From the NCBI GenBank assembly GCA_019694555.1, contig JAIBBS010000017.1, positions 5,826 through 69,825 on the forward strand: a DNA stretch of 64,000 nt, given 5' to 3'. Origin of the DNA: Nannocystaceae bacterium. GTDB lineage: Bacteria > Myxococcota_A > Polyangia > Nannocystales > Nannocystaceae. The position numbers and the translations under genes were made by a program. The notes under the pieces were generated by a model. It saw only the letters and a list, made by a program, of their open reading frames with translations. It did not search any database and had not been told where the DNA came from. Shown here one piece after another: positions 31,780 through 63,150 of the stretch; the stretch's first letter is position 1; every line of letters starts with the position of its first letter.

Positions 31780-31805
31780 CGCGCGCGCCGGAATCGGCGC
31801 GTCAG
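31776..31805. terminator. bidirectional terminator hairpin between convergent genes
   Basis: ctgacgcgcgcgccg-gaat-cggcgcgtcag is an inverted repeat that spans exactly the two convergent stop codons (TGA at 31777..31779, and the fhs stop at 31802..31804). Confidence 0.5.
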
Positions 31806-33436
31806 GACAGCCCGACGATGGTGCCGTCGACGAGGTCGATCTTCGCCGCGGCCGGGACCTTGGGCAGACCGGGCATGCGCATCAGCTCGCCGGTGAGCAC
31901 GACGATGAAGCCGGCGCCGGCGTTGATCTGCAGCCCGCGCACGGTGATCTCGAAGTCGCGCGGACAGCCGCGCAGCTTGGGATCGTCCGACAGCGAGTTC
32001 TGGGTCTTGGCCACGCAGATCGGCAGGTTGCCGTAGCCGAGCTTGTCGATGTCCTTGAGGTCGCGCTCGGCCGACTTGGTGAAGGCGACACCGCGCGCGC
32101 CGTACATCGCCTGGGCCACGGCTTCGATCTTCGCCGGGATCGAGGCCTCGAGCGGATACAGCGGCTCGAAGCGCGCGCCGCCCTTGTCGACCGCGGCGAT
32201 GACCTGACGGCCGAGCTCGAGCGCACCCTCGCCGCCGCGGCCGAAGTGCTCGCACACGGCCACGCCGACGCCGCGCTTGGCACAGGCCTCGGCGACCACG
32301 GCGAGCTCCTCGTCGGTGTCGCTGCCGAAGCGGTTGAGCGCAACCACGGCGGGCTTGCCGAAGCGCGCGACGCTCTCGAGGTGCTTCTCGAGGTTGGGCA
32401 GGCCCGCGGCGACGCCGGCGGGATCGGGCTTGTTGATGGCGTCGAGCGCGACGCCACCGTGCATCTTGAGCGCGCGCGCGGTCGCGACCAGCACGACCGC
32501 GTCGGGATCGAAGCCGGCGCTGCGGCACTTGATGTCGAAGAACTTCTCCGCGCCGAGATCGAAGCCGAAGCCGGCCTCGGTCACGACCCAGTCGGCGAGC
32601 TTGAGCCCCGTGCGCGTGGCGATGACGCTGTTGCAGCCGTGGGCGATGTTGGCGAAGGGCCCGCCGTGCACGATCGCGGGCGTGCCCTGCTCGGTCTGCA
32701 CGAGGTTGGGCAACAGCGCGTCGCGCAGCAGCGCCAGCATCGCGCCGGTGACCCCCAGCGCGCCGGCGGTGACGGGCGCGCCGCTGCGATCGAAGCCGAC
32801 CAGGGTGCGATCGATGCGACGGCGCAGGTCGTCGGCGTCGTCGGCGAGGCACAGCATCGCCATCAGCTCGGAGGCCGCGGTGATGTCGAAGCCGGCCTCG
32901 CGCGGGGTGCCGTTGGTCTCGCCACCGAGCCCGACGACGATGTTGCGCAGGCTGCGATCGTTCATGTCGATCACGCGGCGCCACAGCACGCGACGGGCAT
33001 CGAGCCCCGGCGCGGTGCCGAAGTGCACGCAGTTGTCGATCGCGGCCGCGAGCAGATTGTGCGCACTGGTGATGGCGTGGAAGTCACCGTTGAAGTGCAG
33101 GTTGATGTCGTCCGAGGGCGACAGCCGGCTGCGCCCGCCACCGGTGCCGCCGCCCTTCACACCGAAGCACGGCCCCAGCGACGGCTCGCGCAGCACCGCG
33201 GTCGCGCGGTGCCCCAGCAGCGTCAACGCATCGGACAACCCGATCGACGTCGTGGTCTTGCCCTCACCCGCCGGCGTCGGCGTGATCGCCGAGACCAACA
33301 CCAGCCGCGCCGGGTTGGCACTCGCCCGCGGTCGCGTGAGCACGGCGCGATCGATCTTCGCCTTGTCACGCCCGAACGGAATCAGGTCATCGGACGACAG
33401 ACCCAGGCGCGCGGCGACATCGAGCAGTGGCAGCAT
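31802..33436 (-). CDS. fhs: formate--tetrahydrofolate ligase
   Basis: Full-length match to the Fhs family: PTPAGEGKTTTSIGL, NLHFNGDFHAITSAHNLL, HGGPFANIAHGCNSV, EAGFGFDLGAEKFFDIKCR. Confidence 0.95.
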   Translation of the reverse strand: MLPLLDVAARLGLSSDDLIPFGRDKAKIDRAVLTRPRASANPARLVLVSAITPTPAGEGKTTTSIGLSDALTLLGHRATAVLREPSLGPCFGVKGGGTGGGRSRLSPSDDINLHFNGDFHAITSAHNLLAAAIDNCVHFGTAPGLDARRVLWRRVIDMNDRSLRNIVVGLGGETNGTPREAGFDITAASELMAMLCLADDADDLRRRIDRTLVGFDRSGAPVTAGALGVTGAMLALLRDALLPNLVQTEQGTPAIVHGGPFANIAHGCNSVIATRTGLKLADWVVTEAGFGFDLGAEKFFDIKCRSAGFDPDAVVLVATARALKMHGGVALDAINKPDPAGVAAGLPNLEKHLESVARFGKPAVVALNRFGSDTDEELAVVAEACAKRGVGVAVCEHFGRGGEGALELGRQVIAAVDKGGARFEPLYPLEASIPAKIEAVAQAMYGARGVAFTKSAERDLKDIDKLGYGNLPICVAKTQNSLSDDPKLRGCPRDFEITVRGLQINAGAGFIVVLTGELMRMPGLPKVPAAAKIDLVDGTIVGLS

Positions 33437-33583
33437 CGCGCACGACCGTACCCGCCTTCGCGCGCGAGGTGAACCACGACGACGCGGCCGGGCACCTGGC
33501 GCCCGCGCGCGGCCGCCTGCGCACGCGGGGCGGCGCGCGGTCGCGGGGCCGCGCGCGGTCGCACCGCGGCAGGACGCTCGGCC

Positions 33584-36118: not shown

Positions 36119-36163
36119 CTCGGGCTGCCTCGTCGAAGGGGGGCAGCAGCGTAGCAGGGTTTG

Positions 36164-44920: not shown

Positions 44921-45560
44921 GACCCTTCCCCCGAAGCGTGCGCAAGAGGCTGCGGCCCAGCTTGTGGCGAATCCGTGCGAGCAGGACGCCCAGGGATGCG
45001 TTGGCCGAGTCGCTCGGCGCACCCCAGACGTGCGCGAGCAGCACGTCCCGCGGCACCACGCCCCCGTCTGCGCGCGCGATCGCTTCGAGGATCGCCCACT
45101 CCTTCGCAGTCAATGCGACATCGAGGCCCGCACGCTTGGCTCGTCGAGCGGCGAAATCCAACTCCACGTCACCGCGCGTGCAGCGTGCGACCAGAGGCTG
45201 AGTGCCGCGACGCCCCAAGGCACGCACGCGCGCACGCAGCTCGGCGATGGCGAAGGGTTTCACGAGGTAGTCGTCGGCCCCGGCGTCGAGACCATCGACC
45301 CGGGCGCGCACGTTGCCGGCCGCGGTGAGGATGAGAATCGCGACGCTCGAACCGTCGGCCCGTAGCGCTCGGCACAGATGGAGACCGTCGCCATCGGGCA
45401 AACCCAGGTCGAGGACCACCACGTCGAACGAGGCCTCGAGCAGTGCTTCGCGTGCCATCGTGATCGACGCAGCCGTGCGCGTCGCGTGGCCATCGCGTGC
45501 GAGCGCAGTCCGCAGCAGCGAACAGAGCTCATCATCATCATCCACGATCAGGAGGTTCAT
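44907..45560 (-). CDS. OmpR-family response regulator
   Basis: The receiver domain (LIVDDD...DVVVLDLGLPDGDG) and the winged-helix output domain (LTAKEWAILEAIA, VWG) are both present. It overlaps the HK start by 14 nt. Confidence 0.9.
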   Translation of the reverse strand: MNLLIVDDDDELCSLLRTALARDGHATRTAASITMAREALLEASFDVVVLDLGLPDGDGLHLCRALRADGSSVAILILTAAGNVRARVDGLDAGADDYLVKPFAIAELRARVRALGRRGTQPLVARCTRGDVELDFAARRAKRAGLDVALTAKEWAILEAIARADGGVVPRDVLLAHVWGAPSDSANASLGVLLARIRHKLGRSLLRTLRGKGHALG

Positions 45561-48500
45561 GCCTCCTCCTCGCCAGGGAGGCCGCGTCCACGGCCGAAGA
45601 TCAGGTAGGCGGCCGGCGTGACGATGAGGTTCAGCAGTGTGCTCGTGACCAGACCTCCCAGAATCACCACCGCCATCGGGTGTTCGATCTCCTGGCCCGG
45701 GCGGTCGCCGAACACGACCAGGGGCACCAACGCGAGCCCGGTGGCGAATGCGGTCATGAGGATCGGTGCCAGGCGCTCGCGAGTGCCACGCACCACCAGC
45801 GCAATGTCGAACTCGAGGCCCTGCTCGCGCTCGAGGTGGCGGTAGTGGCTCACCAGCAAGATGCCGTTGCGCGCAGCGATCCCGAGCACGCTCACGAAAC
45901 CCACCAGCGAGCCCAGCGAGAGCACGCCGCCCTGCAGGTGCGCGGCCGCAACCGCCCCAACCGTCGCGAATGGCAGGGTCGCCGCGACCAACAGCGTGGG
46001 CCTGAGCTCGCGGAAGTCCGCGAAGAGCACCAGCACGATGCCGAGGACAGCCAGCACGCTGCCGACGCGCAGCGAACGTGCAGCGCGCTCGCGTGCGCTC
46101 GCCTCGCCCAGCAGCTCGGCGTGGTGGGCCGGCGCGAACTGCTGCTCGTCGATCACGCGCTGGGCCGCGGCCGCCACGTCACCGAGCGGACGCGTACCAT
46201 CGAGTGAACAGGCGACGTCGATGCGCCGCGTCCCGCCCTCGTGCTTGATCGCACCGGGCGTCGCCCGCACGGCGACCTCGGCCACGTCGCGCAGCCGCAC
46301 GGGGAATCCCAACGGCGTCTCCAACGACAGCTCGCGCAGCGCTGCCACGTCCTCGCGCACCGCCGCCGTGCCCCAGACCACGACGGCGACGGGTCGCAGC
46401 TCGCGGTAGATCTCGCCGACCCGCGTGCCGCCGATCAGCGTCGTGACCTGGGCTCGTATCGCGGCGTGGGTCAGCCCGTAGACCTCGGCGGCGACGGGCA
46501 GCGGCGACACCTCGATCTGCGGCACATCGACGATGGCCTCGACCGAGACCTCGCGGGTGCCCTCCACCGCGCGCAGCGCATCCGCCAACGCGCTCGCGCG
46601 CTCGCGCAGGTGGTCGAGGTCCGGACCGGCGACGCGGACGACGATCTCGGCGTGTCCGCCACTGAGAACCTCGTCGACCCGTTCGCGCAGGTATGTCTTC
46701 ACGTCGTGGTAGACGCCGACGTAGGGCGCGAGCACCTCGTCGATCGCCGCGATCGCGCTGGCGTGGTCGGCCGCGGGATCCACCGAGACCCAGATCTCCG
46801 CGAAGTTGGGGCCCACGACCTCGTCCGACACCTCCGCGCGTCCGATGTGCACCCCGGCGTTGCGTACGCCTGGGATCTGCAGCAGCTCGCGGCTCACTCG
46901 CTGGGCGCTCCGCCGCACGGCCTCCACCGAGCTCCCGGGCTTCGCGATCCAGTGCATCAGAAAGTCCTGCTCGCGGAACTCCGGCAGGAAACCCGCGCCG
47001 AGCCGGGAGAAGCCCAACGCGCCAGCGAGCAGCGCGAGCGCGGCCCCGGCCAGCACCAGGCGGGGATGGGACAACAGCGACCACAGCAGTGACGTGAAGC
47101 GACCGTCGAGCCGAGGCCGAGCGTGCGGGTCGGTGCGTCCGGGCAGCAACAGCAACGAGAGCGCCGGCGTGACCGTGAGCGCGACGATGAGCGAGCACGT
47201 GATCGCCAGGATGTATGCGAGCGCCAGCGGACGGAAGAAGGCACCTGCGAGGCCCGGCAGGAGATACACCGGCAGAAACACCAGCGCCACGATCAAGCTC
47301 GCATGCACCACTGCGCTGCGCACTTCGACGGAGGCAGCGAGAACGATCTTGGCAGCGGAGATCCGGTCGATGCCCTTGCCGTGCTGCCGCAGCCGTCGAT
47401 GGATGTTCTCGACGTCGATCACGGCGTCGTCCACCACCTCGCCCAGCGCGATGGACAGGCCCGCGAGCACCATGGTGTCGAGCGTCGCGCCGGCGTGGTG
47501 CAGCACGGCCAGCGCTGCGAGCAACGCGAGCGGGATTGCGAGGACGCTGATGAGTGCGGTGCGCCAGTTTCGCAGCGCGATCAGCAGCACCAGGACCACC
47601 AGCACACAGCCCATCGCGAGCGCCGCCTCGAGATTGTCCACGGCGCGCTCGATGAACGCCGCAGGCCGAAAGATACTCGCATCGATCTCGACCCCGCTGA
47701 GCGCGGGCGCGAGATCGTCGAGTGCGTCGTCGATTGCGTCCGTGATGGCGAGCGTGTTCCCCCACGGCTGCTTCTCGACGATCAGCAGCAACCCTGGTCC
47801 ACCGTCGATGACGGCATCGCCGGGCAAGGGTGGATGGCCTTCGACCACCTCCGCGACGTCCCCGAGCGTGACGTTCGTACCGCGGCGCCACGACAGCGGC
47901 GCAGCGGCGAGCGTCGCCACGTCGCGCACGGCGGCTGGGTGACTCACCGCGAGGCGTTGGTTCGGACCGTCGACGAACCCGCCCGACCCCGGGTTCACCG
48001 CGGCGCTCGTCGCCTGCACGACCTCGTCGAGGCGCACGCCGAACAGCTCGAGGCGCTCGGGATCGACCAGGACCTGCAGCTCCCGACGGGCCTCACCCCA
48101 GACCGCCACGTTCGCGACGCCCGGCACCGCCATCAGGCGCGGGCGAATCGTCCACCGGGCCAGATCGCTCAGCTCCAGTGGCGTGTGTGCGTCGGATCGC
48201 AGGCCGATCTTCAGCACGCGTGCGGTGCTGCTGGTGGGTGACAAGACCACCGGCGTGCGCGCGAGCGCGGGCAACTGCGGCTGCGCCAGTGCCACACGCT
48301 CTTGCACGAGCTGCCGCGCGCGGAAGAGATCGCTGCCAGGCTCGAAGAGCACGACGACGGACGCCAAGCCGAGCACCGACTTGGATCGCAGCGTCGTCGC
48401 CAGCGGCGTGCCCTGCAGCGCGTCTTCGAGCGGGCGCGTCACCAGCGTCTCGACCTCGACACTCGACAGCCCGGGTGCCTCGACTTGAATCTCGACGCGC

Positions 48501-48634
48501 GGTGGCGCGAACTCGGGGAAGGCGTCGATGCGCGCGCGTTGCAGCGCGTCGAGTCCGATCCAGATGACCAACGACGCCAGCGCGAGCACGACCACGCGCT
48601 GTCGCAGGCACGCGTCGATCAACGCGCGGATCAA
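45557..48634 (-). CDS. RND heavy-metal efflux pump, CzcA/CusA (HME) family
   Basis: 1025 aa with 12 TM helices and two large periplasmic loops. The N-terminus (MIRALIDACLRQRVVVLALASLVIWIG) and VENIHRRL are typical of CusA/CzcA. Confidence 0.9.
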   Translation of the reverse strand: MIRALIDACLRQRVVVLALASLVIWIGLDALQRARIDAFPEFAPPRVEIQVEAPGLSSVEVETLVTRPLEDALQGTPLATTLRSKSVLGLASVVVLFEPGSDLFRARQLVQERVALAQPQLPALARTPVVLSPTSSTARVLKIGLRSDAHTPLELSDLARWTIRPRLMAVPGVANVAVWGEARRELQVLVDPERLELFGVRLDEVVQATSAAVNPGSGGFVDGPNQRLAVSHPAAVRDVATLAAAPLSWRRGTNVTLGDVAEVVEGHPPLPGDAVIDGGPGLLLIVEKQPWGNTLAITDAIDDALDDLAPALSGVEIDASIFRPAAFIERAVDNLEAALAMGCVLVVLVLLIALRNWRTALISVLAIPLALLAALAVLHHAGATLDTMVLAGLSIALGEVVDDAVIDVENIHRRLRQHGKGIDRISAAKIVLAASVEVRSAVVHASLIVALVFLPVYLLPGLAGAFFRPLALAYILAITCSLIVALTVTPALSLLLLPGRTDPHARPRLDGRFTSLLWSLLSHPRLVLAGAALALLAGALGFSRLGAGFLPEFREQDFLMHWIAKPGSSVEAVRRSAQRVSRELLQIPGVRNAGVHIGRAEVSDEVVGPNFAEIWVSVDPAADHASAIAAIDEVLAPYVGVYHDVKTYLRERVDEVLSGGHAEIVVRVAGPDLDHLRERASALADALRAVEGTREVSVEAIVDVPQIEVSPLPVAAEVYGLTHAAIRAQVTTLIGGTRVGEIYRELRPVAVVVWGTAAVREDVAALRELSLETPLGFPVRLRDVAEVAVRATPGAIKHEGGTRRIDVACSLDGTRPLGDVAAAAQRVIDEQQFAPAHHAELLGEASARERAARSLRVGSVLAVLGIVLVLFADFRELRPTLLVAATLPFATVGAVAAAHLQGGVLSLGSLVGFVSVLGIAARNGILLVSHYRHLEREQGLEFDIALVVRGTRERLAPILMTAFATGLALVPLVVFGDRPGQEIEHPMAVVILGGLVTSTLLNLIVTPAAYLIFGRGRGLPGEEEA

Positions 48635-49806
48635 TGCGGCACCCCGAACTCGGCGCCGAACAACTCGGCGACCCCGACCCGGACTACGCAGCGTCCGACG
48701 GTGGGTCCACGTTCGAACGCGGTGCGGCCGCCCTGCGAGTGCAGCGGGACGACCGCCTCACGTACGAATGCGCCGGGTTCGTCGCAGGTGTAGACCCAGG
48801 CGCCGCCGTTCACGTCGTAGACGATCGCGGAGCTCGGGATGGTCGTGTGCTCGGCCTCGGCGCGCTCGGACAGCTCGACGGCGACGCGCTCACCCACGAC
48901 CGCTCCCATGTCGGCCGGCGCCACGAAGTAGAGGTCGACGTTCGCCGTGACCGCGTCGACCGACGGTGCCGCCGATACACGCGCCGCGGTCCAGCGCATG
49001 GTGGCACCGAGCGGGCCGATCGCCGCGGGGTCGGCACGATCGATCCGCGCCAGCAGCCCCGGCGGCACCGGCACGCGCACCCACAGGTCTTCCGTGGGTG
49101 TGATCTCGAACAGCGACGCGCCCGCGGCGACCACCTGCCCCGGCGCGGCGCCGAGCATGCGAACCGCACCGTCGGTCGGCGCCACCACGCGCAGCGTCAC
49201 GTCGGAGGACAGCGGCGCGCGGCCAAGCCCCGCTTCGCGCGAGCGTGCGGCGTCGAGATCCGCGCGCGCAGCCTCGAGATCGGCGCGGGCTTCCTCGAGT
49301 GCACGCGCGCTGGCGGCACGATCCGCGACCAGGGCCTCGAGCCGCGCGACGCGTGCCTCGGCCACCTGCAGACGCGCGGCGCCCGTGGAGATCTGGCGTT
49401 TCGCCTGCGCCCGGACGTCACGGTCGACCGGCGCGAGCGGAACCAGGCGCAACGCCACCGTGCCGGCACGCAGCAGCGTGCCGGCCTGTAGCGGCGCGTC
49501 GCCGGCACGCACCGTGCCGGGCAGCGGCGCCGTGACGACGATCGCCCTTCCCGGAGGTGCGACCACGAATCCCGGCACGTGGTGCACCCGCGCGGTGGCT
49601 TGTCGCGCGACCGCCTCGGTCTCGAGTCCGAGCGACGCGATGGTCTCGGCCGTGAGCTCGAGTCGTCGCAGTCGGTCCTCGCGCGCGACAGCGTTCCCGC
49701 CGACCGGCGGGTCGCGAGGCTGCGCGGCTGAGTCGGGCGACTGCCTGCCGCATCCGCACGCCACGACCAGGATGAGGCACCACGCGACGAGCGGTGGTGT
49801 GGTCAT
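48631..49806 (-). CDS. RND membrane fusion protein (CzcB/CusB, HlyD family) lipoprotein
   Basis: A lipobox (LILVVACGC) is followed by a coiled-coil hairpin (ARLEALVADRAASARALEEARADLEAARADLDAAR) and beta-barrel domains. It is translationally coupled to the RND gene. Confidence 0.85.
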   Translation of the reverse strand: MTTPPLVAWCLILVVACGCGRQSPDSAAQPRDPPVGGNAVAREDRLRRLELTAETIASLGLETEAVARQATARVHHVPGFVVAPPGRAIVVTAPLPGTVRAGDAPLQAGTLLRAGTVALRLVPLAPVDRDVRAQAKRQISTGAARLQVAEARVARLEALVADRAASARALEEARADLEAARADLDAARSREAGLGRAPLSSDVTLRVVAPTDGAVRMLGAAPGQVVAAGASLFEITPTEDLWVRVPVPPGLLARIDRADPAAIGPLGATMRWTAARVSAAPSVDAVTANVDLYFVAPADMGAVVGERVAVELSERAEAEHTTIPSSAIVYDVNGGAWVYTCDEPGAFVREAVVPLHSQGGRTAFERGPTVGRCVVRVGVAELFGAEFGVPH

Positions 49807-51107
49807 CTCAGCCGCTCCAATGCGGCGAGCCGACCGCCGGTGGCGCGCTCGAGCTCGGCGTGGGCGCGCCGGACCTCCGCATCCAGCTCGACCTCACGCA
49901 GTCGCGTCTGTTCGAGACGCTGCGCCGAGAGCAGCACGCCGCCGTAGTCGCTCTCGCCGGCGCGATACCGGGCCGTGGCGGTAGCGAGCTCGCGCTGTCG
50001 CGCGTCGACGATCTCGCCGTGGTACAGCGATGAGGAACGCTGTGCGGCGGTCAGCTGCGCGCGCGCCTGCGTGACCTCGACGCCGATACGTAGCGCGAGC
50101 TCCTGGTAGCGCCACCGCGCGGCCTGTTGTCGGCCCTTCGCGCGCCCCCGCCCGGCCTGGTTCTGCGATGCCAGCGGGATCTCGGCCTGCACGCCGCCGG
50201 TGTAGGCGGCGCCGTTGCCGGACACGACGCCTGCGAGCGTGAACACCGAGGCGCGCTCGAGACCCACGATCAGCGATGCGGCATCGATGGCGATCGCTGC
50301 CGCGCGGAGGTCCGCGCGAGAGGCGAGCGCCAGCGCCGTCAGGCGATCGGCGGGCGGCGGCGGCTCCGTGGCAGCGGCTCCGTCGTCGGGAACGAGTCGA
50401 ACCGCGTCGGGATAGCCGATGCGCGCGGCCAAGCGACTCGCCGCGACCGTCACCTCGAGCTCCGCGCGCGCGGCATCGTCGGCTGCGAGCATCGCGTCGG
50501 CGTCGGCCGCGTCGACCTCCGCGGGCGCGACGTCGCCGGCTTCGGCGCGGGCCCGCACGACCGCGGCGATCTCGGACCACTGCTGCGCGATCACCTGGCG
50601 CACGCGCACGCGTTCGTGCGCGAGCCGCCATTCGACGTGCGCGAGCTTGGCATCGCGCGCGAGGTCGGTGCCGACCTGTACCAGGGACTGCGCGACCTCG
50701 GCGAGGTTCTTGCGGGCGATCTTCACGCGCCGCGGCAGCATGATCAGGGTCTCGAGCGGCCACGTCACCAACGCGCCGAGCTGCTGCGGCCCCGCGGGAA
50801 ACAGCAGGCGCAGCGTCGGATTCGACGGGCGCTTGGCGCCCGCGAGCTCCGCCTCCGCAACGCGCAGGCGCGTGAGCTCGACACGGAACGCCGGGCTGTT
50901 CCAGATCGCAATCGCGACTGCTTCGTCGGCGCTGCAGCCATCCGCGACGACGACCCCGGGCGGCAGCGTCGGTGGATCGGTGGGCTCGCGCCGCGCGTCG
51001 TAGCCGCCGCCGACGCGAGCACGAAGCTCCTGCGACACGTCGGGGGTGGCGGTCCGCCCCGCACACCCGCCGAGCGCGAGGGCCAATGCGGCGTGCCTGC
51101 AGCGCAC
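49803..51107 (-). CDS. outer-membrane efflux protein (TolC/CzcC family)
   Basis: The GTG at 51107 gives VRCRHAALALALGGCAG, a lipobox. Two OEP-type helical repeat halves follow. An alternative upstream ATG at 51266 would add a 50-aa leader. Confidence 0.75.
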   Translation of the reverse strand: MRCRHAALALALGGCAGRTATPDVSQELRARVGGGYDARREPTDPPTLPPGVVVADGCSADEAVAIAIWNSPAFRVELTRLRVAEAELAGAKRPSNPTLRLLFPAGPQQLGALVTWPLETLIMLPRRVKIARKNLAEVAQSLVQVGTDLARDAKLAHVEWRLAHERVRVRQVIAQQWSEIAAVVRARAEAGDVAPAEVDAADADAMLAADDAARAELEVTVAASRLAARIGYPDAVRLVPDDGAAATEPPPPADRLTALALASRADLRAAAIAIDAASLIVGLERASVFTLAGVVSGNGAAYTGGVQAEIPLASQNQAGRGRAKGRQQAARWRYQELALRIGVEVTQARAQLTAAQRSSSLYHGEIVDARQRELATATARYRAGESDYGGVLLSAQRLEQTRLREVELDAEVRRAHAELERATGGRLAALERLR

Positions 51108-51262
51108 CGGCCGACCCTGGCCCGGACGTCGGACCCGGGCAACAGGAAACCCTTGCCCGCGGACCGTCGCGTTCGCCTCCCGTTCGATTTCGACTCGGTC
51201 CGGCGCCAACACGGAGCGAGCGACACCCCGCCAGCGCAGCGTCGGCGCGGGACGACCCGGCG

Positions 51263-52348
51263 TCATGGCGACATCGCATCGATCCAAGCAGCAAGTGCCT
51301 TCGTTCCTGCCGGGTCGACCTTGTGGCTCACCAGTGGCGGCATCGCGTAGTCATCCCGACGATCGGTCATCAGCCACAGCAGGCTCGACTCGTGCACACC
51401 CGGCGTGACGCGCAGTGCACCCGGGAACCGTTGCGCCACCGAAGCGGTGGTGGGCTCGACCCCGACCGTGGCGGCGTACGCCTCTGCCTCCGTCGCGTCG
51501 GAGACCGGCGCGCCGTGCTGCGGCAACTGCCAGATCTCGTCGGCGCGGATCCGCAGCAGCAGCTGTGTCTCGTCGCCGAGCCCCCGCGACGAATGACACG
51601 GCATGCCACAGTTCGCATGCAAGTACCCGAGCGCCGCGGCCGCGCGGCCGGTCGAGTCCTCCGGCAGCCTGGCCTGCGGGCTCGACGGTGCCCAGCTCAA
51701 CCGCCCGTCGTCGCGGAGCACCTGCAGCGTCACGCCGAGCGCTCCGGGAAGCGCGAGCGCGACAGCCTCGATCCCCAGGAGCTTGTCGGCGCCGCCGTGA
51801 TGACACTTGCCGCAGTCCTTGGCTGTCGGGATCTCGTAGTCATCGCCGACGATCGTCGGCATGCGCGACGTGTCGAGCGTCGCGTCGCTGCCCGAAGCGT
51901 CCCAGATGTACGTGCCCGAGGCCCACTCCGATGGCGCACGCTTCCAGAACAGGCGCGTCTCGACCAGCCGACCGTCGAACCGAAACTCCTTCCACGCCTT
52001 CGTGCCTTCGGGGAACTGCCACGCGTCGAAGTCGGTCGTGTCGATTTCGGTTCCGGGGGGGAGGTACAGATAGCGTTGCTTCTCGGCGCCATCGCTCCAC
52101 AGGGTGACACCAGGTTCGTAGGGCGCAACGCGTTCGACGTACTGCCCGGGATCACGATCGAGCTGCAGGCCGGTACAGAAGACGTCGGCCGGGAGTCCGT
52201 GCTCGGGGATCACGCAGTCATCGGCGATTCCATCGCGGTCGGGGTCGGGGTCCCGGCTGCCAGCGCATCCAAGGACTGCGAGCATCCCGGTCGAGAAGAC
52301 TCCCGGCCCCCGACACGGAGGTCGACGGAGCCGTACGCGATCAGTCAT
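51263..52348 (-). CDS. lipoprotein with two CxxCH haem-binding motifs (c-type cytochrome-like)
   Basis: The ATG at 52348 gives MTDRVRLRRPPCRGPGVFSTGMLAVLGC. CGKCH and CGMPCH are both present. Confidence 0.55.
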   Translation of the reverse strand: MTDRVRLRRPPCRGPGVFSTGMLAVLGCAGSRDPDPDRDGIADDCVIPEHGLPADVFCTGLQLDRDPGQYVERVAPYEPGVTLWSDGAEKQRYLYLPPGTEIDTTDFDAWQFPEGTKAWKEFRFDGRLVETRLFWKRAPSEWASGTYIWDASGSDATLDTSRMPTIVGDDYEIPTAKDCGKCHHGGADKLLGIEAVALALPGALGVTLQVLRDDGRLSWAPSSPQARLPEDSTGRAAAALGYLHANCGMPCHSSRGLGDETQLLLRIRADEIWQLPQHGAPVSDATEAEAYAATVGVEPTTASVAQRFPGALRVTPGVHESSLLWLMTDRRDDYAMPPLVSHKVDPAGTKALAAWIDAMSP

Positions 52349-52790
52349 TCGCTGCTCCAGCCTCGATCCAGCCGCGAATCGCGTCCACCGCTTCCGCATC
52401 CAGTGCGGCCCCGCCCAGGGGCATGCGGGAGCCACACGACGGGTTGTCGGAGAACTTGTCGAGGAACAGGCTCCGATCGGGATCGTATGGCGTGACCAAG
52501 GGCTGCCCCGAACACCCATCGCTGGCCGACGCCACGCCCACGAGTGCGGCATACGCCGAATCAGGGTCCGAACCCATTGCAAGGTTGCCGTTGCTCACCT
52601 GACTCGCCGGCATCGCGTGACAGAAGTTGCACCGCGCAGGCGTCGTCGTCGGAAAGTACCGATCGTAGATTTCCGTGAACGTTGCCGGCGCCGGACCGGA
52701 TGCGGATTCGCATGCCGCGACGATCAGACCGATCCCGACCACGAGCCCGGCCGGACGCCGACGCTGCAGGCGACTCAATTGGGTTCGCAT
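52341..52790 (-). CDS. monohaem c-type cytochrome lipoprotein (149 aa)
   Basis: The ATG at 52790 gives MRTQLSRLQRRRPAGLVVGIGLIVAAC. CNFCH is the haem-binding motif, and SCGSRMPLGG provides the Met ligand region. Confidence 0.55.
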   Translation of the reverse strand: MRTQLSRLQRRRPAGLVVGIGLIVAACESASGPAPATFTEIYDRYFPTTTPARCNFCHAMPASQVSNGNLAMGSDPDSAYAALVGVASASDGCSGQPLVTPYDPDRSLFLDKFSDNPSCGSRMPLGGAALDAEAVDAIRGWIEAGAAND

Positions 52791-53746
52791 TGGAATGGTC
52801 CATTGGCAATCGGTGGAAGCGTGTGGAGGTAGACCGCGATGTCGTGCCGGTCCTCGTCGGTCATCGCGCCAAGGCGATCGGGACCACCGGGGTGAGTGCT
52901 GCAGAGCGCGCGGCCGGTGTCCTTCTCGAGATTCGTCGCGAGCACCGCTTCGATGTCGGCGACGCTCAGGTCCGCCAAACCTGTCGGGTCCGGCGTCAGG
53001 TTCACCGAGGTCTGCTCCGGCGCGCCTCGGATGAAGGTGTACTTCTTGCCTCCGGCGAACGCCTTCGCGAGATTCGGCACATCCGGACTGAGCTGCTCGG
53101 TGTGACAATTCAGGCAAGCCGCCGCCGCGAGATAGCGACCACGCTCGGCGGCGGCAAAGTCGGGGTCGCTCTGGGCCAGCGTCGTATGCGGAACATCCGC
53201 GTCCTGGACGTCCGGCGCCGGGGGCTGCTGGTCGAAGTGGGGGAAATCTGCGGCGACCACGTTGTCGTTGGGTGGGACGGTCCGCAAGTATTGGATGATC
53301 GAGTCGACATCCTCGGGCGTCAGCAGCGAGTACTCCGGGTACGGCATGATCGGGTAGATGGCGATGTGTTCGTCGTCGATGCCGTCGATCAATGCGGTTC
53401 GGATCTGCGAGTCGGTCCAAGCGCCAAGGCCCTCCGGGTCGTGCGACGTCAGGTTCTCGGCGTTGACGGTGATGATCGTGCCGTCGACGTCGGTGAAGTC
53501 GTACGAACGGCTTCCCGCGAGGTAGAGCGACATGTCCGGCTCACCGTTCTCGTCGTTGGGCGTGTGACACACGCCGCAGAGCAAGACGTGGTCGACGAGG
53601 TATTGTCCGCGCTCCACCGTCCCACGGTAGGCCTTCCCGGGGTCCTCGCCCGTGTCGCTGCTGCCGGCCTGGGCGTCGTCGACCGAGGCGCAGCCGCCGT
53701 GCATGAGGAAGAGAACGGGGAGCACGTGGTGACATCTGCGGAGCAT
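52775..53746 (-). CDS. dihaem c-type cytochrome
   Basis: The ATG at 53746 gives MLRRCHHVLPVLFLMHGGCA. CGVCH and CLNCH are present, and there are two cytochrome-c domains. Confidence 0.7.
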   Translation of the reverse strand: MLRRCHHVLPVLFLMHGGCASVDDAQAGSSDTGEDPGKAYRGTVERGQYLVDHVLLCGVCHTPNDENGEPDMSLYLAGSRSYDFTDVDGTIITVNAENLTSHDPEGLGAWTDSQIRTALIDGIDDEHIAIYPIMPYPEYSLLTPEDVDSIIQYLRTVPPNDNVVAADFPHFDQQPPAPDVQDADVPHTTLAQSDPDFAAAERGRYLAAAACLNCHTEQLSPDVPNLAKAFAGGKKYTFIRGAPEQTSVNLTPDPTGLADLSVADIEAVLATNLEKDTGRALCSTHPGGPDRLGAMTDEDRHDIAVYLHTLPPIANGPFQCEPN

Positions 53747-53781
53747 GCGTTGTGCTTTCGCTTGGGCTCGGAGGCGCGTTC

Positions 53782-54327
53782 TCAGTAGCCCTGACCGCCA
53801 GGGCAGAATGTGGCGTAGAAACGGCCGCGGACCTCCGCGTCGGCGCCTGCGTAGCTCGCTTCCACGGTCCCGACCACCTTCACGCCGGGTTCGCTCTGCG
53901 TGAACGTGACGTGTCCGTCCGTCGCCGCGACCTCGTACGCCGACGACTTCCCGCCCGCGGCGTAGTTGACCTCGGCGCCACCCTCTTCGACGGCGACCGT
54001 GCCCGACGCCCGGGTCGAAGGGACGACGATCTCGATGATCTGGGCGCCGACCGCGACGTCTCCGAGCCAGCGGGAGACCATCAGCTGCGCGCACGTGAGC
54101 GAGACCGAGCTCAGGTAGACGAGGGTCTCGCCGCTGTTCTCGATCATGATCGAGGCGACGGTGGGCTCGATCTCTCCGAGATCGCCGAGTTCCCCCATCA
54201 GGAGCGTCTCGGTGTCTCCGTAGTCCTGTTGGTCCGGGCTGCGGTCGCACGCGGTCAACGAGGTGATCCACGCGGTCGCCCCGTACAGGAGCGACCAGCG
54301 AGCCCGGGGCGCGAGTCGAGCCGTCAT
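53782..54327 (-). CDS. lipoprotein, hypothetical (181 aa)
   Basis: MTARLAPRARWSLLYGATAWITSLTAC is a lipobox. The domain is acidic and Thr/Val-rich. Confidence 0.5.
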   Translation of the reverse strand: MTARLAPRARWSLLYGATAWITSLTACDRSPDQQDYGDTETLLMGELGDLGEIEPTVASIMIENSGETLVYLSSVSLTCAQLMVSRWLGDVAVGAQIIEIVVPSTRASGTVAVEEGGAEVNYAAGGKSSAYEVAATDGHVTFTQSEPGVKVVGTVEASYAGADAEVRGRFYATFCPGGQGY

Positions 54328-54490
54328 TGCGTGTTAGGGCTCGTGCTTCGCCCTGCGTTACGGCGTCGCGCGGCAACCCACCGATCCGTTCGGCTCCCGT
54401 TCGCTTCGTTGGCACGGAGCGAGGGGTTCTCCGGGATCCCTGCGCTCCGGGATCGATCCACGAGTCGCAATACCGGACCGGCGAGGCACT

Positions 54491-54663
54491 CGCGTCGAGC
54501 GCGAGGGCGTCGTCGTCGAGCCCTTCGAGGAGGTCGCGCTCCGCTGCAGGGCGAGGCCGGGGCTGCAAGCACGGCGCGCGAGGGTTCGAGGCGCTCGGCA
54601 TCGCCGAGGTCGCGCTCGACCGCGTGGTCGACGGTCCGCGCCGCGGCCGTGCTCGCCACGCGC
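54491..54663 (+). pseudogene. frameshifted fragment copying the 3' end of the M48 peptidase gene (compare 56323..56493)
   Basis: About 90% nucleotide identity over about 173 bp to the 3' end of the gene at 54930..56525. There is a 1-nt deletion (gcgctccgctgcag vs gcgctcgcgctgcag). The fragment is not in any long ORF and is followed directly by DR-R. Confidence 0.6.
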
Positions 54664-54683
54664 GACGACCCGAACGTCACGCC

Positions 54684-54745
54684 GCGAGACACCGCCGGTG
54701 CAGCTGCTGCCCAGCGGCCGCATGCTGCGGCTGGGCTGAGCGGCG
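54684..54745 (+). repeat. 62-bp direct repeat, right copy (DR-R)
   Basis: 61/62 identical to 43467..43528 (one synonymous-position G/A difference). It carries the last 17 codons and stop of the small Cys protein gene but has no upstream gene body. Confidence 0.85.
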
Positions 54746-54929
54746 CGCGCTGACGCGACCCCGTGATCGGATTGCCGCTTCGGCGCGCGAGCGCCGTCGT
54801 CGCTGGCCGTAGGCCCAAGCGCGCGTGCGTGCAACGTCGCGCCGCAGTCGTGATACGAACCCTGTGCTGGCGCAGCCTGCAGGTCGCAGGTCACACCGGC
54901 CTCGTTCACGGATTCGGACGCAGCCACGA

Positions 54930-56525
54930 ATGACCAACCGCCCACCGCGATTGCCCGCCGTCGTCGTGATCGCGTCGATGTTCGCGTTCTTCGTGATCGC
55001 GCTGCTCATCGCGGCTGCACTGTGCTGGCTCGCATGGGTGTTGTACGAGCGCGCGTTCACTGGCGGCTGGACGCAGGGGGGGTTGCACCTGGCCGCGCTC
55101 GCGACCCCGTTGGTGGTGGCGGCGGGCACCATCGTATGGTCGCTGCTGCCGCGTCGCGATCGCTTCGTCCCGCCGGGTCCCGAGCTGAGCGAACGCGACG
55201 CGCCCGGGTTGTTCCGCGAGATCCAGCGCATCGCCGCCGCGACCGGGCAGGCGCCGCCGGGCCACGTCTACGCGTCCTTGGGCGTCGAAGCCTTCGTGAC
55301 CGAACGCGGCGGCGTGATGGGCTTCGGTTCCACTCGTGTGCTCGCCGTGGGCCTGGCGCTGCTCGAGTTGTTGTCCGAGACCGAGGCCGCTGCAGTCCTC
55401 GCGCACGAGTTCGGGCACTTCCACGCCGGCGACACCAAGCTCGGGCCGTGGGTGCTCGGCACGCGCGCGAGCATCGGGCGCACCATCGAGAACCTCGGCC
55501 GCGTCGGCGACCTCGAGATGGACCTGTGGATCGTGCGCAGGATGCTCGCGCTGGTGCGCGGCCTGAGGGCCCCGTTCGAATGGTTCTGGAGGCTGCACCT
55601 GCGGATCACACGCGGCATCGCCCGCGCGCAGGAGTACGCCGCCGACGCCGTCGCGGCCCGTGTCGTGGGACCGCAGGCACTGGCCGAGGCGCTGAAGAAG
55701 ACTCGCGTCGGCTCGCTGGCATTCGATGCCTACCTGCACACGTCGGTGTTGCCGGTGTTGGAGGCTGGCTTCCGGCCGCGGATCACCGAGGGCTTCCGCG
55801 CGTTCCTCCGCGCGCAGCGACAGGGCCCCGCGCTCGACCTCGCGCTGCACGAGGCGCTCCACGATCACAGCGGCACACCCGACGACTCGCACCCACCGAT
55901 ACCCGATCGGCTCGCCGCGCTCGCAAAGCTGTCGGGGCCACAGCCGCCGTTCGACTCGCGCCCAGCGATCGCATGGCTCGAAGACGTGGCATCGCTGGAG
56001 GCACGCATCATCGTGAGCCGGCCCGACGGCACCGCGCTGCAGGACGTCGCATGGACAGACGTCATGATGCGCGCGTTGGCACCGGTGTGGCGCGATCGAC
56101 TCGCGCAGGACCAGCGTGTGCTCAGCGGGCTCACGCCGGCCCTTGTCGTACTGCAGCCCGCGAACATGCGCCGGCGCGTGCGGGCGTTGGTCGGCGGCAT
56201 CATCGACGGCGCGCCCGACGACGAGGTCGCCGCGCGGTTCGCCGAGGTGGTCGGCGCCGCCGTCGTCCTCGCGCTGGTCGACCGCGGCTGGACCGCGATC
56301 GCCGTCACCGGCGAGGGCATTCGCGTCGAGCGCGACGGCGTCGTCGTCGAGCCCTTCGAGGAGGTCGCGCTCGCGCTGCAGGGCGAGGCCGAGGCTGCGG
56401 CGTGGCGCGCGAGGGTCGAGGCGCTCGGCATCGCCGAGGTCGCGCTCGACCGCGTCGTCGACGGTCCGCGGCGCGCCCGTGCTCGCCACGCGCAGACGAC
56501 TCGCGCGCGACGGGGCGCGCGCTGA
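54930..56525 (+). CDS. M48 family zinc metallopeptidase (HtpX/Ste24-like), membrane
   Basis: The ATG at 54930 begins a protein with two N-terminal TM helices, AHEFGHF (HExxH) and a downstream EYAADA glutamate motif. The long C-terminal domain is duplicated as a fragment at 54491..54663. Confidence 0.8.
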   Translation: MTNRPPRLPAVVVIASMFAFFVIALLIAAALCWLAWVLYERAFTGGWTQGGLHLAALATPLVVAAGTIVWSLLPRRDRFVPPGPELSERDAPGLFREIQRIAAATGQAPPGHVYASLGVEAFVTERGGVMGFGSTRVLAVGLALLELLSETEAAAVLAHEFGHFHAGDTKLGPWVLGTRASIGRTIENLGRVGDLEMDLWIVRRMLALVRGLRAPFEWFWRLHLRITRGIARAQEYAADAVAARVVGPQALAEALKKTRVGSLAFDAYLHTSVLPVLEAGFRPRITEGFRAFLRAQRQGPALDLALHEALHDHSGTPDDSHPPIPDRLAALAKLSGPQPPFDSRPAIAWLEDVASLEARIIVSRPDGTALQDVAWTDVMMRALAPVWRDRLAQDQRVLSGLTPALVVLQPANMRRRVRALVGGIIDGAPDDEVAARFAEVVGAAVVLALVDRGWTAIAVTGEGIRVERDGVVVEPFEEVALALQGEAEAAAWRARVEALGIAEVALDRVVDGPRRARARHAQTTRARRGAR

Positions 56526-59705: not shown

Positions 59706-61049
59706 TCACCCGGGGCACTGCGCGCTGGGCTCGGCGTAGCCGTGGGTGATGAAGAAGATCGGATGGCCCGGCGTGAACGCGCCCGGCGGCAGCACGTCCC
59801 AGGTCATGCCGTCGGTGCTGCGCAAGAACCTCTGCTCGTCGTAGCCCAGCCACACGTTGTTCACCGCGACCAGGGTGCCCTCGGGGCTGCGCGCGACCGG
59901 ACCGACGTCCTCGTCGGATGCGATCGCTTCGGTCGTCCACGTCACGCCGTCGCTGCTGCGGTAGCGGTTGCCCCAACCCCAGAACCAGAACTCTTCGCCG
60001 GTCCAGATGCCCGAGCTCGCGATGCGGCTGTCGGTGATGACGTGTGATTCCCAGGTCTGGCCGCCGTCGATCGAGCGGCACGCGTGGCCGTCGCCATCGG
60101 CCATCAGCAGCACGTCGTTGCCGCCGAGGATGTCGCCGTAGGCACCCGGACCCTCGCCGACGCAATCGGCGGGGAAGCTGCTCGGGCGCCACCAGGTCTC
60201 GCCGGCGTCGGAGCTGACGAGCACGTCGGCGCTGGTGTTGCCGCTGGCGTACGCGACGAAGCGACCTTCGCCGCCGTAGCTGCCCCAGCCGAAGCGACGC
60301 ACGGACCAGATCACGCCCTCGGTGCCCTCGAAGTCGGCCTCGGTCGTGGGCATCCACGCGGCGCCGTCGCTCGACACCTGCGGCGTGCGCGAGGCGACGA
60401 CGAAGCGCTCGCCGTCGAAGCGCAGGCCGCCGAAGCTGTCGTTGTCGAGGCCCACGGTCCAGTCGAAGCCGTTGGTGCTCCACGACACCGCGCCGGGCCA
60501 ACCCCAGCCCCACGTCGCGACGAAGCGGCCGTTGCCGTACGCGACGCCCTTGCTGAAGCCGGGGCTGTGGCCGCAGTCGCATGCGTCCATGCTGCAGCTG
60601 CCGTCGTACCAGACCTGCGAGCACACCGAGCCGTCGTTGGCGCTGCAGTCGACCGGCGTGGTCGAGCCGCACAGGTGCACGTCGCCTTCGAGATCCCACG
60701 AGCGATCGCCGATCCACGTGAGCCCGTCGTCGCACGAGATCGTCGAGCGTCCGACCATGCCCTGCGCCACGAACACCGGCACGCCCTCGGGCACGCTGCC
60801 GGTGTCGCTGCTGCTGCTGCCGCCGTCGTCGGTCGCGTCGGTGCCCGCGGTCGTGCTCGCGGTCGTGCTCGCGGTGGTGCTGCCGCTCGCGCTGGTGCCG
60901 GCGCTCGTGCCCGGGCTGCCGCTGCTTTCGCTGCCCTCGCTGCCACTGGCCTCGCCCGCGTCGCTCGACGCGGCCGGGCCCGCGCCGGCGTTCGAGCAGG
61001 CCAGTGCGAAACCGAGCAACAGAAACGGGGTCCTGGGTGCGCGCGACAT
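59706..61049 (-). CDS. lipoprotein with Ser/Thr-rich linker and W/G-rich repeat domain (BNR/sialidase-like propeller?)
   Basis: MSRAPRTPFLLLGFALAC is a lipobox. A long S/T/G linker is followed by repeats containing SxDGGxTW-like motifs (SIDGGQTW, SSDGVTW, STDGMTW), which resemble BNR/Asp-box repeats. Confidence 0.7.
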   Translation of the reverse strand: MSRAPRTPFLLLGFALACSNAGAGPAASSDAGEASGSEGSESSGSPGTSAGTSASGSTTASTTASTTAGTDATDDGGSSSSDTGSVPEGVPVFVAQGMVGRSTISCDDGLTWIGDRSWDLEGDVHLCGSTTPVDCSANDGSVCSQVWYDGSCSMDACDCGHSPGFSKGVAYGNGRFVATWGWGWPGAVSWSTNGFDWTVGLDNDSFGGLRFDGERFVVASRTPQVSSDGAAWMPTTEADFEGTEGVIWSVRRFGWGSYGGEGRFVAYASGNTSADVLVSSDAGETWWRPSSFPADCVGEGPGAYGDILGGNDVLLMADGDGHACRSIDGGQTWESHVITDSRIASSGIWTGEEFWFWGWGNRYRSSDGVTWTTEAIASDEDVGPVARSPEGTLVAVNNVWLGYDEQRFLRSTDGMTWDVLPPGAFTPGHPIFFITHGYAEPSAQCPG

Positions 61050-61118
61050 GCCGGGCGCTTCAGTAACGCGAGCGGCCGAGTTGTCTCGCCCGCCCGCGAA
61101 AACTCACCCTTCGCGGCG

Positions 61119-61868
61119 TCAGCTGGGGATCCCGGCGGCCTGCTCGAACGGCGCCTTGCTGATGCGCCACACGCCGACGAAGGGATGATCGATGTCCCAG
61201 ATCACCGCACGGATCATGGTCAGCACCGCCGCCAGGGCCACGAACGCGACGTGGCCGAGCTGCGTCTGGGCGCCCGCGGGCAGCGCGAACACGCCGGCGA
61301 GCAGCAGCAACGACAACAGCGCGAGCAGGTGGTTGAGCGTGGCCGGCATGCGGTGCTTGGCCGCGCTGACGCGCGAGACCCTGCACTCGCGCAGGGCCGC
61401 GAGCGCGTCCGACAGCCGCGCGATCGCGGTCGCACCGTGCTCGGGCGCGACCGCGAGCTCGGCCACGCGCGCGTCGAGGGCGTCGAGCGCCGCGACGGCC
61501 ACGCGGCTCTCCGACAGTGTCGCGAGCTCGTCCCACTCCGCCGCCGCCGCGGTGAGGTACGCGCGCGTGGCCGCGCCGATGCGACGCCGCGCGGCGTCGC
61601 CACCGGAGCCGGTCAGCGCCGCGAGCCGCGGCAGCTCGGTCGCGAGGCTGCCCTCGCGCACGGTGAGCTTCTGCAGCGCGTTGAACTGCTCCCACACCAC
61701 GAAGATCACGAACGCCGTCAGCACGCTGTAGATGCCGCCGAGCAGCTCGAGCAGCGTCTCGAGCGCGGGCACGGCATCGACACCGAGCCCCGGCACGCCA
61801 CCGGGCACCAGCAGGCACACCAGCGCGGCGAGGACGATTGCGACGACGATCTTGACGTAGACACCCAT
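61119..61868 (-). CDS. membrane protein, hypothetical
   Basis: The ATG at 61868 gives MGVYVKIVVAIVLAALVCLLVPG, a TM segment. There are further TM helices near the C-terminus. Confidence 0.5.
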   Translation of the reverse strand: MGVYVKIVVAIVLAALVCLLVPGGVPGLGVDAVPALETLLELLGGIYSVLTAFVIFVVWEQFNALQKLTVREGSLATELPRLAALTGSGGDAARRRIGAATRAYLTAAAAEWDELATLSESRVAVAALDALDARVAELAVAPEHGATAIARLSDALAALRECRVSRVSAAKHRMPATLNHLLALLSLLLLAGVFALPAGAQTQLGHVAFVALAAVLTMIRAVIWDIDHPFVGVWRISKAPFEQAAGIPS

Positions 61869-61956
61869 GGGTTTTGCGACCTCGTCGAGGTCCAACCCCC
61901 GGCCGCGGCGCCGCATGCCCGACCGCGGCACCGCCGCACCGCCGCGGCGCGTGGGC

Positions 61957-62511
61957 TCACGGCGCGTCGTCGTGGCTGTGGATGCCGAGCCCGTCGGCGA
62001 TGCGGTTGTAGTAGGCGAACAGCGCGATCACCTGCACCGCGTGCGCGATCGCGGGATCGCTCCAGCCGTGCTCGCGCAGCGCCGCGACGTCGGCCTCGCG
62101 CACCGCCGCCGGCGTGCGGGTCAACGTCTGCGCGAATGCCAACAGCGCAGCCTCGGCCGGCGGCAGAGTCGGCAGCTCGCCGCGCAGCAACGCATCGGCG
62201 ATCGCGGGCGCATCGGGTCGGTGGGCGACCTCGGCACGGAGGTCGTCGGCGTGCGAGCGCAGTCAATACTCGCACGCGTTGATCATCGACACGTACGACG
62301 CGAGCAGCTCACGCTGCGCACGCGAGAGCGGCTCGTCACGCGCGTGCATCAATCGCAGGTACAGCTCGGTCGACGCCTCGAGCACGCGCGGCTGCAGGCT
62401 CTGGATCCGGATCACCGCGAAGACCTTGCCCGCGCGGCGCACCGCGGCGTCGTACAGCCTGCGCAACAAGCCCTCGGCACGCTCGGGCGCGACGGTGTCG
62501 ATGAACGGCAT
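61957..62511 (-). CDS. AhpD-core / carboxymuconolactone-decarboxylase (CMD) family peroxidase-related protein with an in-frame TGA at the CxxC second-Cys position (candidate selenoprotein, or nonsense pseudogene)
   Basis: The N-terminal ORF 62263..62511 (MPFIDTVAPER...LLASYVSMINACEY) stops at the TGA at 62265..62263. Reading continues in the same frame as LRSHADDLRAEVAH...ALFAYYNRIADGLGIHSHDDAP, which is ORF 61957..62190. This reconstitutes the family motif CxYCxxxH as ACEY-[TGA]-LRSH. A hairpin (cgaccuc-cgugcc-gaggucg) begins 17 nt after the UGA. Confidence 0.6.
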
Positions 62512-62649
62512 GCGGGGATCGTACTCGCCCGGCGGGCACGGGGACCGTATTCACCCCGCGGCCCGCTCCGGTCGTCGCGGCGTGACCACTGGCACGATCG
62601 CCGACGCGGTCGGGCGAACCGTTGGGCCGCCACCGACGACACACGGCGC

Positions 62650-63150
62650 ATGGTAGGTTCGTCGACAATCAGTTTCGCGTTGGCTCTGGGAGCGACCTTG
62701 GTGACGGTCGCAGCATCGGGCGCACCCGCAGGCTCGGAGGCGGCCGCGGGCACGCCGGCATCGGCAGCGGTCGAGGACACCGGCGTGGGCATGGTCTCGA
62801 TGGCGGCGTCGGAGAGCAGCGGTGGCATCGTCGATCCCCGCACGCCCGAGGGCGACACCCGCAAGTGCTTCGTCGGTTGGGTCACGACCTCGCGCTCGGG
62901 CAGCAGCTGCACCGTCACGCTGACCGCCAAGGTCGCGATGCAGACCAGCGCGTGCAGTGACTATCCCAACCCCAATCCGACGACGCAGGCGTTCCTCGAC
63001 GGGGGACTCAAGCTCGAGACGCCGGGCTGCACGGTGTCGTCGGCACCCAAGGGCAAGGACACCGTCATCAGCTGCAACCCCTGCCCCACCGAGATCACCA
63101 TGACCGTCAACGCCGACGCCGGCCGCAGGGTCACGCTGCCGCTGCCGTGA
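62650..63150 (+). CDS. secreted hypothetical protein (166 aa)
   Basis: MVGSSTISFALALGATLVTVAASGAPAGS is a signal peptide. A Cys-containing Thr/Ser-rich domain follows. Confidence 0.5.
   Translation: MVGSSTISFALALGATLVTVAASGAPAGSEAAAGTPASAAVEDTGVGMVSMAASESSGGIVDPRTPEGDTRKCFVGWVTTSRSGSSCTVTLTAKVAMQTSACSDYPNPNPTTQAFLDGGLKLETPGCTVSSAPKGKDTVISCNPCPTEITMTVNADAGRRVTLPLP

Follow-up and report, generated by a model that had tools for sequence, protein, structure and literature searches.

The question raised by this locus is whether a single in-frame TGA divides an oxidoreductase gene into two truncated pieces, or whether it encodes selenocysteine (Sec) within one continuous protein. The window, meaning the whole 64 kb stretch of DNA that was analysed (G+C content of ~72%), carries on its minus strand two open reading frames, 62263..62511 (82 aa) and 61957..62190 (77 aa), that share one frame. 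Translated from end to end (62511..61957), the frame comprises 184 codons and is interrupted once, by the TGA at 62265..62263, in the context SYVSMINACEY-TGA-LRSHADDLRAEV or, in its longer version, ELLASYVSMINACEY-TGA-LRSHADDLRAEV. Both halves have a coding-type composition (GC3 of 0.91-0.92 and GC2 of 0.47-0.52), and a six-frame scan of the 64 kb window found this to be the sole TGA with coding-like, stop-free stretches of 40 codons on either side. The signature TGA-N9-CAY-N6-GAYCTCCGKGNNGAGRTY is found at a single place in the window, where shuffled sequences give an expectation of 0. Overall, the locus is very probably an intact, functional Sec-encoding gene for a 184-residue AhpD-like oxidoreductase of the TIGR01926 family, whose UGA would be recoded with the help of a SECIS hairpin (Table 1). 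Our confidence stays short of certainty because Sec insertion is deduced from sequence and because the Sec machinery was not found in the window.

Table 1. Positions of the predicted gene and its elements, numbered along the window.
Feature	Coordinates	Strand	Details
Predicted AhpD-like selenoprotein CDS, complete	61957..62511	-	ATG 62511..62509; predicted Sec-TGA at codon 83; terminal TGA 61959..61957
Predicted selenocysteine codon, in-frame TGA	62263..62265	-	residue 83; replaces the second Cys of CxxC
Active-site segment with AhpD proton-relay residues	62251..62310	-	E68 62310..62308; C80 62274..62272; Y82 62268..62266; U83 (predicted); H87 62253..62251
Putative bacterial SECIS hairpin	62226..62245	-	5' arm 62245..62239 CGACCUC; loop 62238..62233 CGUGCC; 3' arm 62232..62226 GAGGUCG

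The family assignment depends on reading through the TGA, which was translated as C when the full-length product was scored against protein profiles. In particular, the product scores 128 bits against TIGR01926 ('peroxidase-related enzyme', NCBIfam; cutoff of 81.8), with residues 3-181 lying on positions 2-177 of the 178-position model, and the full model is covered only when the TGA is read through. The product is also a member of Pfam CMD (PF02627; 35.5 bits versus a gathering threshold of 23) and scores above the cutoff of the AhpD core domain model (TIGR00778 ahpD_dom; 36.9 bits versus 27.8). It is not a member of canonical AhpD (TIGR00777; 21.4 bits versus 191.95), nor of the AhpD-related CFYUT model NF041238 (69.6 bits versus 175), where the match is limited to the C-terminal part of a 357-position model, and it falls below the cutoff of the YciW-related (seleno)protein model NF053654 (20.6 bits versus 310). 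The reading frame and the end-to-end match to TIGR01926 agree in supporting the preliminary description of this DNA, which had joined two same-frame ORFs, parted by one TGA, into a 184-aa readthrough product.

The position of the TGA within this product is that of a redox-active residue. The best PDB homolog is 6K40 (E 3.5e-22, residues 9-177), followed by 3C1L, 2OYO, 2PFX and 2PRR (to 4e-14), and in two alignments the TGA at codon 83 falls on the second Cys of the homolog (CVYC in 6K40, CYYC in 3C1L). Read from the sequence, the motif E68-X11-C80-E-Y82-[TGA]83-X3-H87 is complete and fits E-X11-C-X-[H/Y]-C-X3-H, and H87 is invariant in the homolog alignments; judging from the PDB homologs, the active-site residues are predicted to lie on a helix-turn-helix of two adjacent helices. 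The AhpD proton relay consists of Glu118/Cys130/His132/Cys133/His137 in M. tuberculosis AhpD and of Glu36/Cys48/Tyr50/Cys51/His55 in PA0269 (PMC3141380), and residue 83 corresponds to Cys133 of the M. tuberculosis enzyme, where this exposed Cys attacks AhpC (PMC6626918).

A homolog search over 5.8 billion proteins found that many database homologs are half-proteins, with N-halves that end ...C-E/H-Y and C-halves that start M/V-x-x-H-x-x-DLRAEV. These break at the same codon, so gene callers have cut them at the TGA. Further, in a locus scan of one genome per species that used a peptide pattern taken from alignment A2 and found more than 584 relatives, the aligned codon is TGA in all of the best 80 loci, which were kept for analysis; with a pattern derived from Sec-type homologs, this 80/80 count shows conservation of the UGA and is silent on the frequency of Cys forms. 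The 80 loci span at least 7 phyla (Myxococcota, Acidobacteriota, Planctomycetota, Chloroflexota, Gemmatimonadota, Latescibacterota and Actinomycetota), and the closest among them are Nannocystaceae metagenome-assembled genomes (MAGs) with protein identities of 82% and 77%. Enhygromyxa salina SWB007 and Nannocystaceae ST9 are further carriers of the ortholog. A more distant Cys homolog (P0005) has TGC at this codon and lacks both the hairpin described below and the DLRAEV peptide. The preliminary description had placed the TGA exactly at the second catalytic Cys and expected a TGA/TGC column among orthologs; the PDB alignments, the motif and the 80 loci concur on the placement, and the column holds TGA in these loci and TGC in the distant Cys homolog.

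Two database records show other treatments of this codon. In JGI 3300075934, protein P0001 (L085:363-950) reads CPYW where the DNA has TGA, and P0003 shows the same 'W'; the caller of L085 evidently used a TGA=Trp code, which leaves P0001 as a selenoprotein stored at full length with a false Trp. In JGI 3300081968, protein P0004 (L086:367-963) has GGA (Gly) in place of the Sec-TGA together with a near-intact SECIS-type hairpin (GAT CTC CGG GCC GAG GTC). This GGA lies on a single 1.5 kb contig and may reflect either recent Sec loss or an error in the reads.

A sequencing or assembly error, with TGC or TGT as the true codon, would need a one-base change from TGC to TGA, and the source is a metagenome-assembled genome. 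However, the same TGA is present in a Logan assembly (L084) that is 99.8% identical to the window, and the same split gene pair appears in two more assemblies (L089, L090); altogether, the identical 82-aa N-terminal half, and hence the same TGA, is found in at least 5 other assemblies. Moreover, the TGA occurs in three assemblies (L081-L083) of a relative that is ~86% identical in DNA, as well as in every one of the 80 orthologs, and we consider an error extremely unlikely.

The same comparisons bear on a nonsense pseudogene, in which a TGC/TGT-to-TGA change would have inactivated a normal CxxC AhpD-like gene and left its downstream part to decay. A lone in-frame stop does split the gene, GenBank annotates two ORFs (MBX7078721.1 and MBX7078720.1), and the Sec machinery was not found within the 64 kb window; however, the downstream part is under purifying selection, with dN/dS values of 0.31, 0.36 and 0.44 in three relatives, similar to the N-terminal half (0-0.32). 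Both the downstream frame and its stop codon persist in the ~86%-identical relative as well as in two less closely related Nannocystaceae, which upholds the earlier argument that an intact flanking frame speaks against decay. The TGA stands at the same codon in orthologs from at least 7 phyla, and a conserved hairpin with codon constraint at the RNA level lies just downstream, making a pseudogene very unlikely. Taken together, the same allele in at least 5 other assemblies, the 80/80 TGA codons and the purifying selection exclude, for practical purposes, both an error and a pseudogene.

The hairpin begins 17 nt after the UGA and doubles as the coding sequence for D-L-R-A-E-V. It folds with a free energy of -10.5 kcal/mol (z = -3.45), a stability matched by 1 of 200 shuffles. 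The published rules for bacterial SECIS elements (bSECIS) call for a 3-9 nt loop with a G within its first two positions (usually followed by G/U), a 4-16 bp stem, a UGA-to-loop distance of 16-37 nt and a free energy no higher than -7.5 kcal/mol (PMC13188914). The window's hairpin conforms to all of these, with a 6-nt loop (CGUGCC), a 7-bp stem, G-U at loop positions 2-3, a distance of 24 nt and its energy of -10.5 kcal/mol. Across the family, 74 of 81 sequences, the window included, satisfy all four bSECIS constraints; the other 7 miss the energy threshold, where 6 keep a weaker but recognisable hairpin and one (L070) has a disrupted canonical stem.

The pairing itself is conserved. In a gap-free, 60-column alignment of 81 sequences (A3), 93% of the stem cells of the seven proposed pairs are paired, compared to 25-48% after shifting the 3' partners by 1-3 columns, and none of 500 shuffles reached the observed pairing or covariation score. 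Two of the pairs covary: at pair 33-46, 62 sequences have C-G and 16 have U-A (GAC...GUC vs GAU...AUC), together with a Val-to-Ile change, while pair 30-49 is C-G in 37, G-C in 15, U-G in 8 and U-A in 4. The other five pairs are nearly invariant and therefore hardly inform on pairing in either direction; among them, the changes at 31-48 and 36-43 are limited to one-sided replacements of G-C by G-U. Codon choice is similarly restricted. The stem Leu is CTC in 79 of 81 sequences, compared to 36% of the Leu codons elsewhere in the same genes, and the loop Arg is CGG or CGT in all 81 and never CGC, which makes up 50% of the Arg codons elsewhere. By limiting this Arg to CGG/CGT, the sequence G followed by G/U is fixed at loop positions 2-3. 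Codon usage at the hairpin shows RNA-level selection. A stable 7-bp hairpin 17 nt after the UGA, a GU within its loop and a position plausible for a bacterial SECIS had all been proposed beforehand; the fold (z = -3.45) is present and conserved, the G-U is correctly placed at loop positions 2-3, and the published bSECIS rules, the covariation and the synonymous-codon constraint bear out the position.

General RNA searches gave less. An Rfam search of 61900..62560 at a permissive E-value returned chance matches only (E >=2) and no SECIS family, and the whole window returned no Rfam match at gathering score. RNAalifold found no consensus pairs on the 60-column alignment, and explicit pair counting was used instead. 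The whole 76-nt region folds no better than shuffles (z = -0.87), so only the second of its hairpins, the one described above, is meaningful. A first hairpin, with the UGA in its loop (GUGCGAG...CUCGCAC), was rejected on account of this shuffle-like fold and of its lack of conservation in the family (A3 columns 1-24). An intergenic hairpin at ~61872..61886 (GACCUC-GAC-GAGGUC), whose arms resemble those of the SECIS, was also rejected, as the 86%-identical relative does not preserve it.

Six Acidobacteriota/Terriglobia loci (L030, L031, L037, L047, L056 and L076), with peptides such as DLRVES or DLRAES, lack the usual hairpin. In its place is CACGGAGA-GGA-UCUCCGUG, a hairpin positioned 7 nt further upstream whose spacing is 17 nt and whose free energy ranges from -8.4 to -11 kcal/mol; this shifted hairpin occupies ~10-30 nt after the TGA and re-uses the CUCCGU segment as its 3' arm.

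Among the sequences examined, most Sec forms contain the peptide D-L-R-A-E-V/I and the few Cys and Ser homologs lack it, and the UGA+SECIS element is near base-for-base constant over at least 7 phyla. These two observations suggest, tentatively, that the SECIS and the peptide motif are one sequence, with the hairpin GAY-CUC-CGK-GYN-GAG-RUY fixing D-L-R-A-E-V/I, and that it could form a self-contained UGA+SECIS cassette that spreads horizontally among Sec-competent bacteria, including aerobic marine myxobacteria (Nannocystaceae). We consider such a cassette possible, though somewhat short of probable.

A conserved UGA followed by a conserved hairpin could also serve another purpose. The UGA may terminate translation, giving an 82-aa protein and a separately initiated C-terminal protein, or it may be read through by a near-cognate Trp or Cys tRNA, with the hairpin acting as a readthrough or pausing signal. 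Gene callers give two products at this locus, Sec insertion is itself a deduction here, and no Sec machinery was found in the 64 kb window. However, the codon after the TGA is mostly no start in orthologs (ACN, ATC or GCN), and the first downstream start in the window comes 24 codons on, which would drop the invariant H87. Moreover, the UGA coincides exactly with the redox Cys, the hairpin matches a SelB-dependent SECIS in spacing, loop size and G[G/U] signature, and the AhpD-like family is a recognised selenoprotein family. Both non-Sec uses are, in our assessment, distinctly unlikely.

The Sec machinery was sought both in the window and around the orthologs. No tRNA-Sec was found in the 64 kb window, and neither Pfam scans of ~50 ORFs nor tblastn probes found selA, selB or selD there. 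Searches by tblastn with approximate E. coli SelA, SelB and SelD queries, run on the window together with 84 loci, produced no more than two weak SelB matches, and the only one of the two that was scanned, in L018, proved to be LepA/EF4. In the flanks of 1 of the 84 loci, a tRNA-Sec is present (L028:626-722 (-), anticodon TCA), located 9.5 kb from the AhpD-like CxxU gene on a Phototrophicaceae (Chloroflexota) chromosome; the genes between the two are unrelated (a HAD-type phosphatase-like gene, a TPR protein, a glycosyltransferase and a peptide ABC transporter).

No neighbouring gene is common across phyla, where the single large cluster consists of the gene's own antisense shadow ORF, and the absence of a conserved neighbour leaves no pointer to the substrate. 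Scans of the window found no AhpC/Prx domain. In Nannocystaceae, a gene for a bestrophin-like membrane protein (61868..61119) follows on the same strand. Two long ORFs run antisense to the real genes, 61867-63150 (+) with 427 aa and 60084-62282 (+) with 732 aa; both are shadow ORFs typical of a genome with 72% G+C, and an antisense ORF opposite the AhpD-like gene recurs in 69 related loci.

Several other features of the window were recorded. An ORF at 42289-42915 (+) has a partial match to Sulf_transp (YeeE/YedE-type; E 3.7e-10), and the syntenic position of the L081 contig is occupied by two adjacent Sulf_transp genes. Some Sulf_transp proteins have been put forward as transporters of selenium or sulfur. 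Compared to L081:13750-17700, from the relative ~86% identical to the window, the window's segment at ~44000-56500 contains ~12 kb of extra genes, which sit between a glyoxalase/324-aa gene and the Sulf_transp genes. The extra block includes an RND efflux system made up of an AcrB-type gene (45557-48757), an HlyD-type gene (48631-49893) and an outer-membrane factor (49803-51350), as well as a histidine kinase and an M48 peptidase. Further, an 859-aa ORF at 33584-36163 (-) matches Pfam MVP_shoulder (E 1.7e-26) and Vault_3 (E 7e-11); to judge by these matches, this myxobacterial genome contains a major-vault-protein-like gene, located directly upstream of a formate-tetrahydrofolate ligase gene (31802-33583) on the same strand.

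As a selenoprotein, which is the reading we favour, the product would be an AhpD-like thiol/selenol oxidoreductase with the UGA at codon 83 recoded to selenocysteine. The hairpin within the coding sequence, 24 nt downstream, would act as the SECIS by binding SelB-GTP-Sec-tRNA(Sec) and delivering it to the ribosome at the UGA. The redox centre would then be C80-x-x-U83, situated inside a proton relay of E68, C80, Y82, U83 and H87. As Sec would occupy the position of M. tuberculosis Cys133, it may be the exposed nucleophile that attacks an oxidised partner, and on this basis we propose that the enzyme cycles between selenol/thiol and selenenyl-sulfide forms, potentially reducing a peroxiredoxin-type partner or a peroxide.

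The main value of this analysis is a correction of annotation. GenBank describes the gene of the Nannocystaceae MAG as an 82 aa 'carboxymuconolactone decarboxylase family protein' (MBX7078721.1) and a 77 aa 'hypothetical protein K1X88_05985' (MBX7078720.1); the intervening 24 codons, with His87 and the putative SECIS among them, are left without annotation. When the full-length product was looked up by exact match with position 83 set to X or W, no database entry matched, and many database homologs are likewise halved or given Trp at the UGA. The gene would also imply that this Nannocystaceae lineage decodes UGA as selenocysteine; our literature search found no paper joining selenocysteine with Nannocystaceae, Enhygromyxa or Plesiocystis. 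The 81-sequence alignment presents an unusually clean bacterial SECIS, whose RNA constraints are legible in codon usage, and could serve as a training set or benchmark for SECIS and selenoprotein predictors. The gene itself opens no new biological question and is an ordinary selenoprotein gene.

AhpD-like selenoproteins (COG2128/TIGR01926, CxxU) were first described in 2005, when the Sargasso Sea metagenome yielded 27 sequences (PMC1088965), and the GOS survey counted 'AhpD-like 1' as the fourth most abundant prokaryotic selenoprotein family, with 299 sequences (PMC2398784). The AhpD-like protein (TIGR01926, CxxU) appears in the selenoprotein family list of a 2026 review (PMC13188914), in line with the preliminary description's statement that a bacterial family of this kind had already been described, and the BSepDB database also lists the family. 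The window's gene is a further member. It scores above the cutoff of the same NCBIfam model, has CxxU with the predicted Sec at the second Cys, and carries its putative SECIS shortly after the UGA, within the coding sequence and with a G among the first two nucleotides of the loop; it differs in nothing essential, being a copy in a Nannocystaceae (Myxococcota) MAG that was annotated as two ORFs.

Other known systems are more distant. NF041238, NF041047 (distant AhpD homolog), NF053654 and the CMD-like CxxU protein (PF02627) share CxxU within an AhpD/CMD fold, but the window's product scores far below the cutoffs of NF041238 and NF053654, and these proteins are different subfamilies. M. tuberculosis AhpD (Rv2429; TIGR00777) has the same E-X11-C-X-[H/Y]-C-X3-H relay motif on a helix-turn-helix (PMC3141380), and its Cys133, the nucleophile that attacks AhpC, corresponds to the predicted Sec position (PMC3141380, PMC6626918). 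In contrast to that enzyme, the window's protein belongs to another chain topology class (the ~180-aa 'peroxidase-related' type), lies outside TIGR00777, has Tyr in place of His132 and, as predicted, Sec in place of Cys, and is encoded without an adjacent ahpC. The nearest structural counterparts are 6K40 ('alkyl hydroperoxide reductase AhpD' according to its depositors), 3C1L (Mlr4105), 2OYO, 2PFX and 2PRR, which are full-length homologs of equal length and motif position; they differ in having CxxC and, instead of the SECIS-encoding D-L-R-A-E-V, the peptide H-G-A-A-L/V-R.
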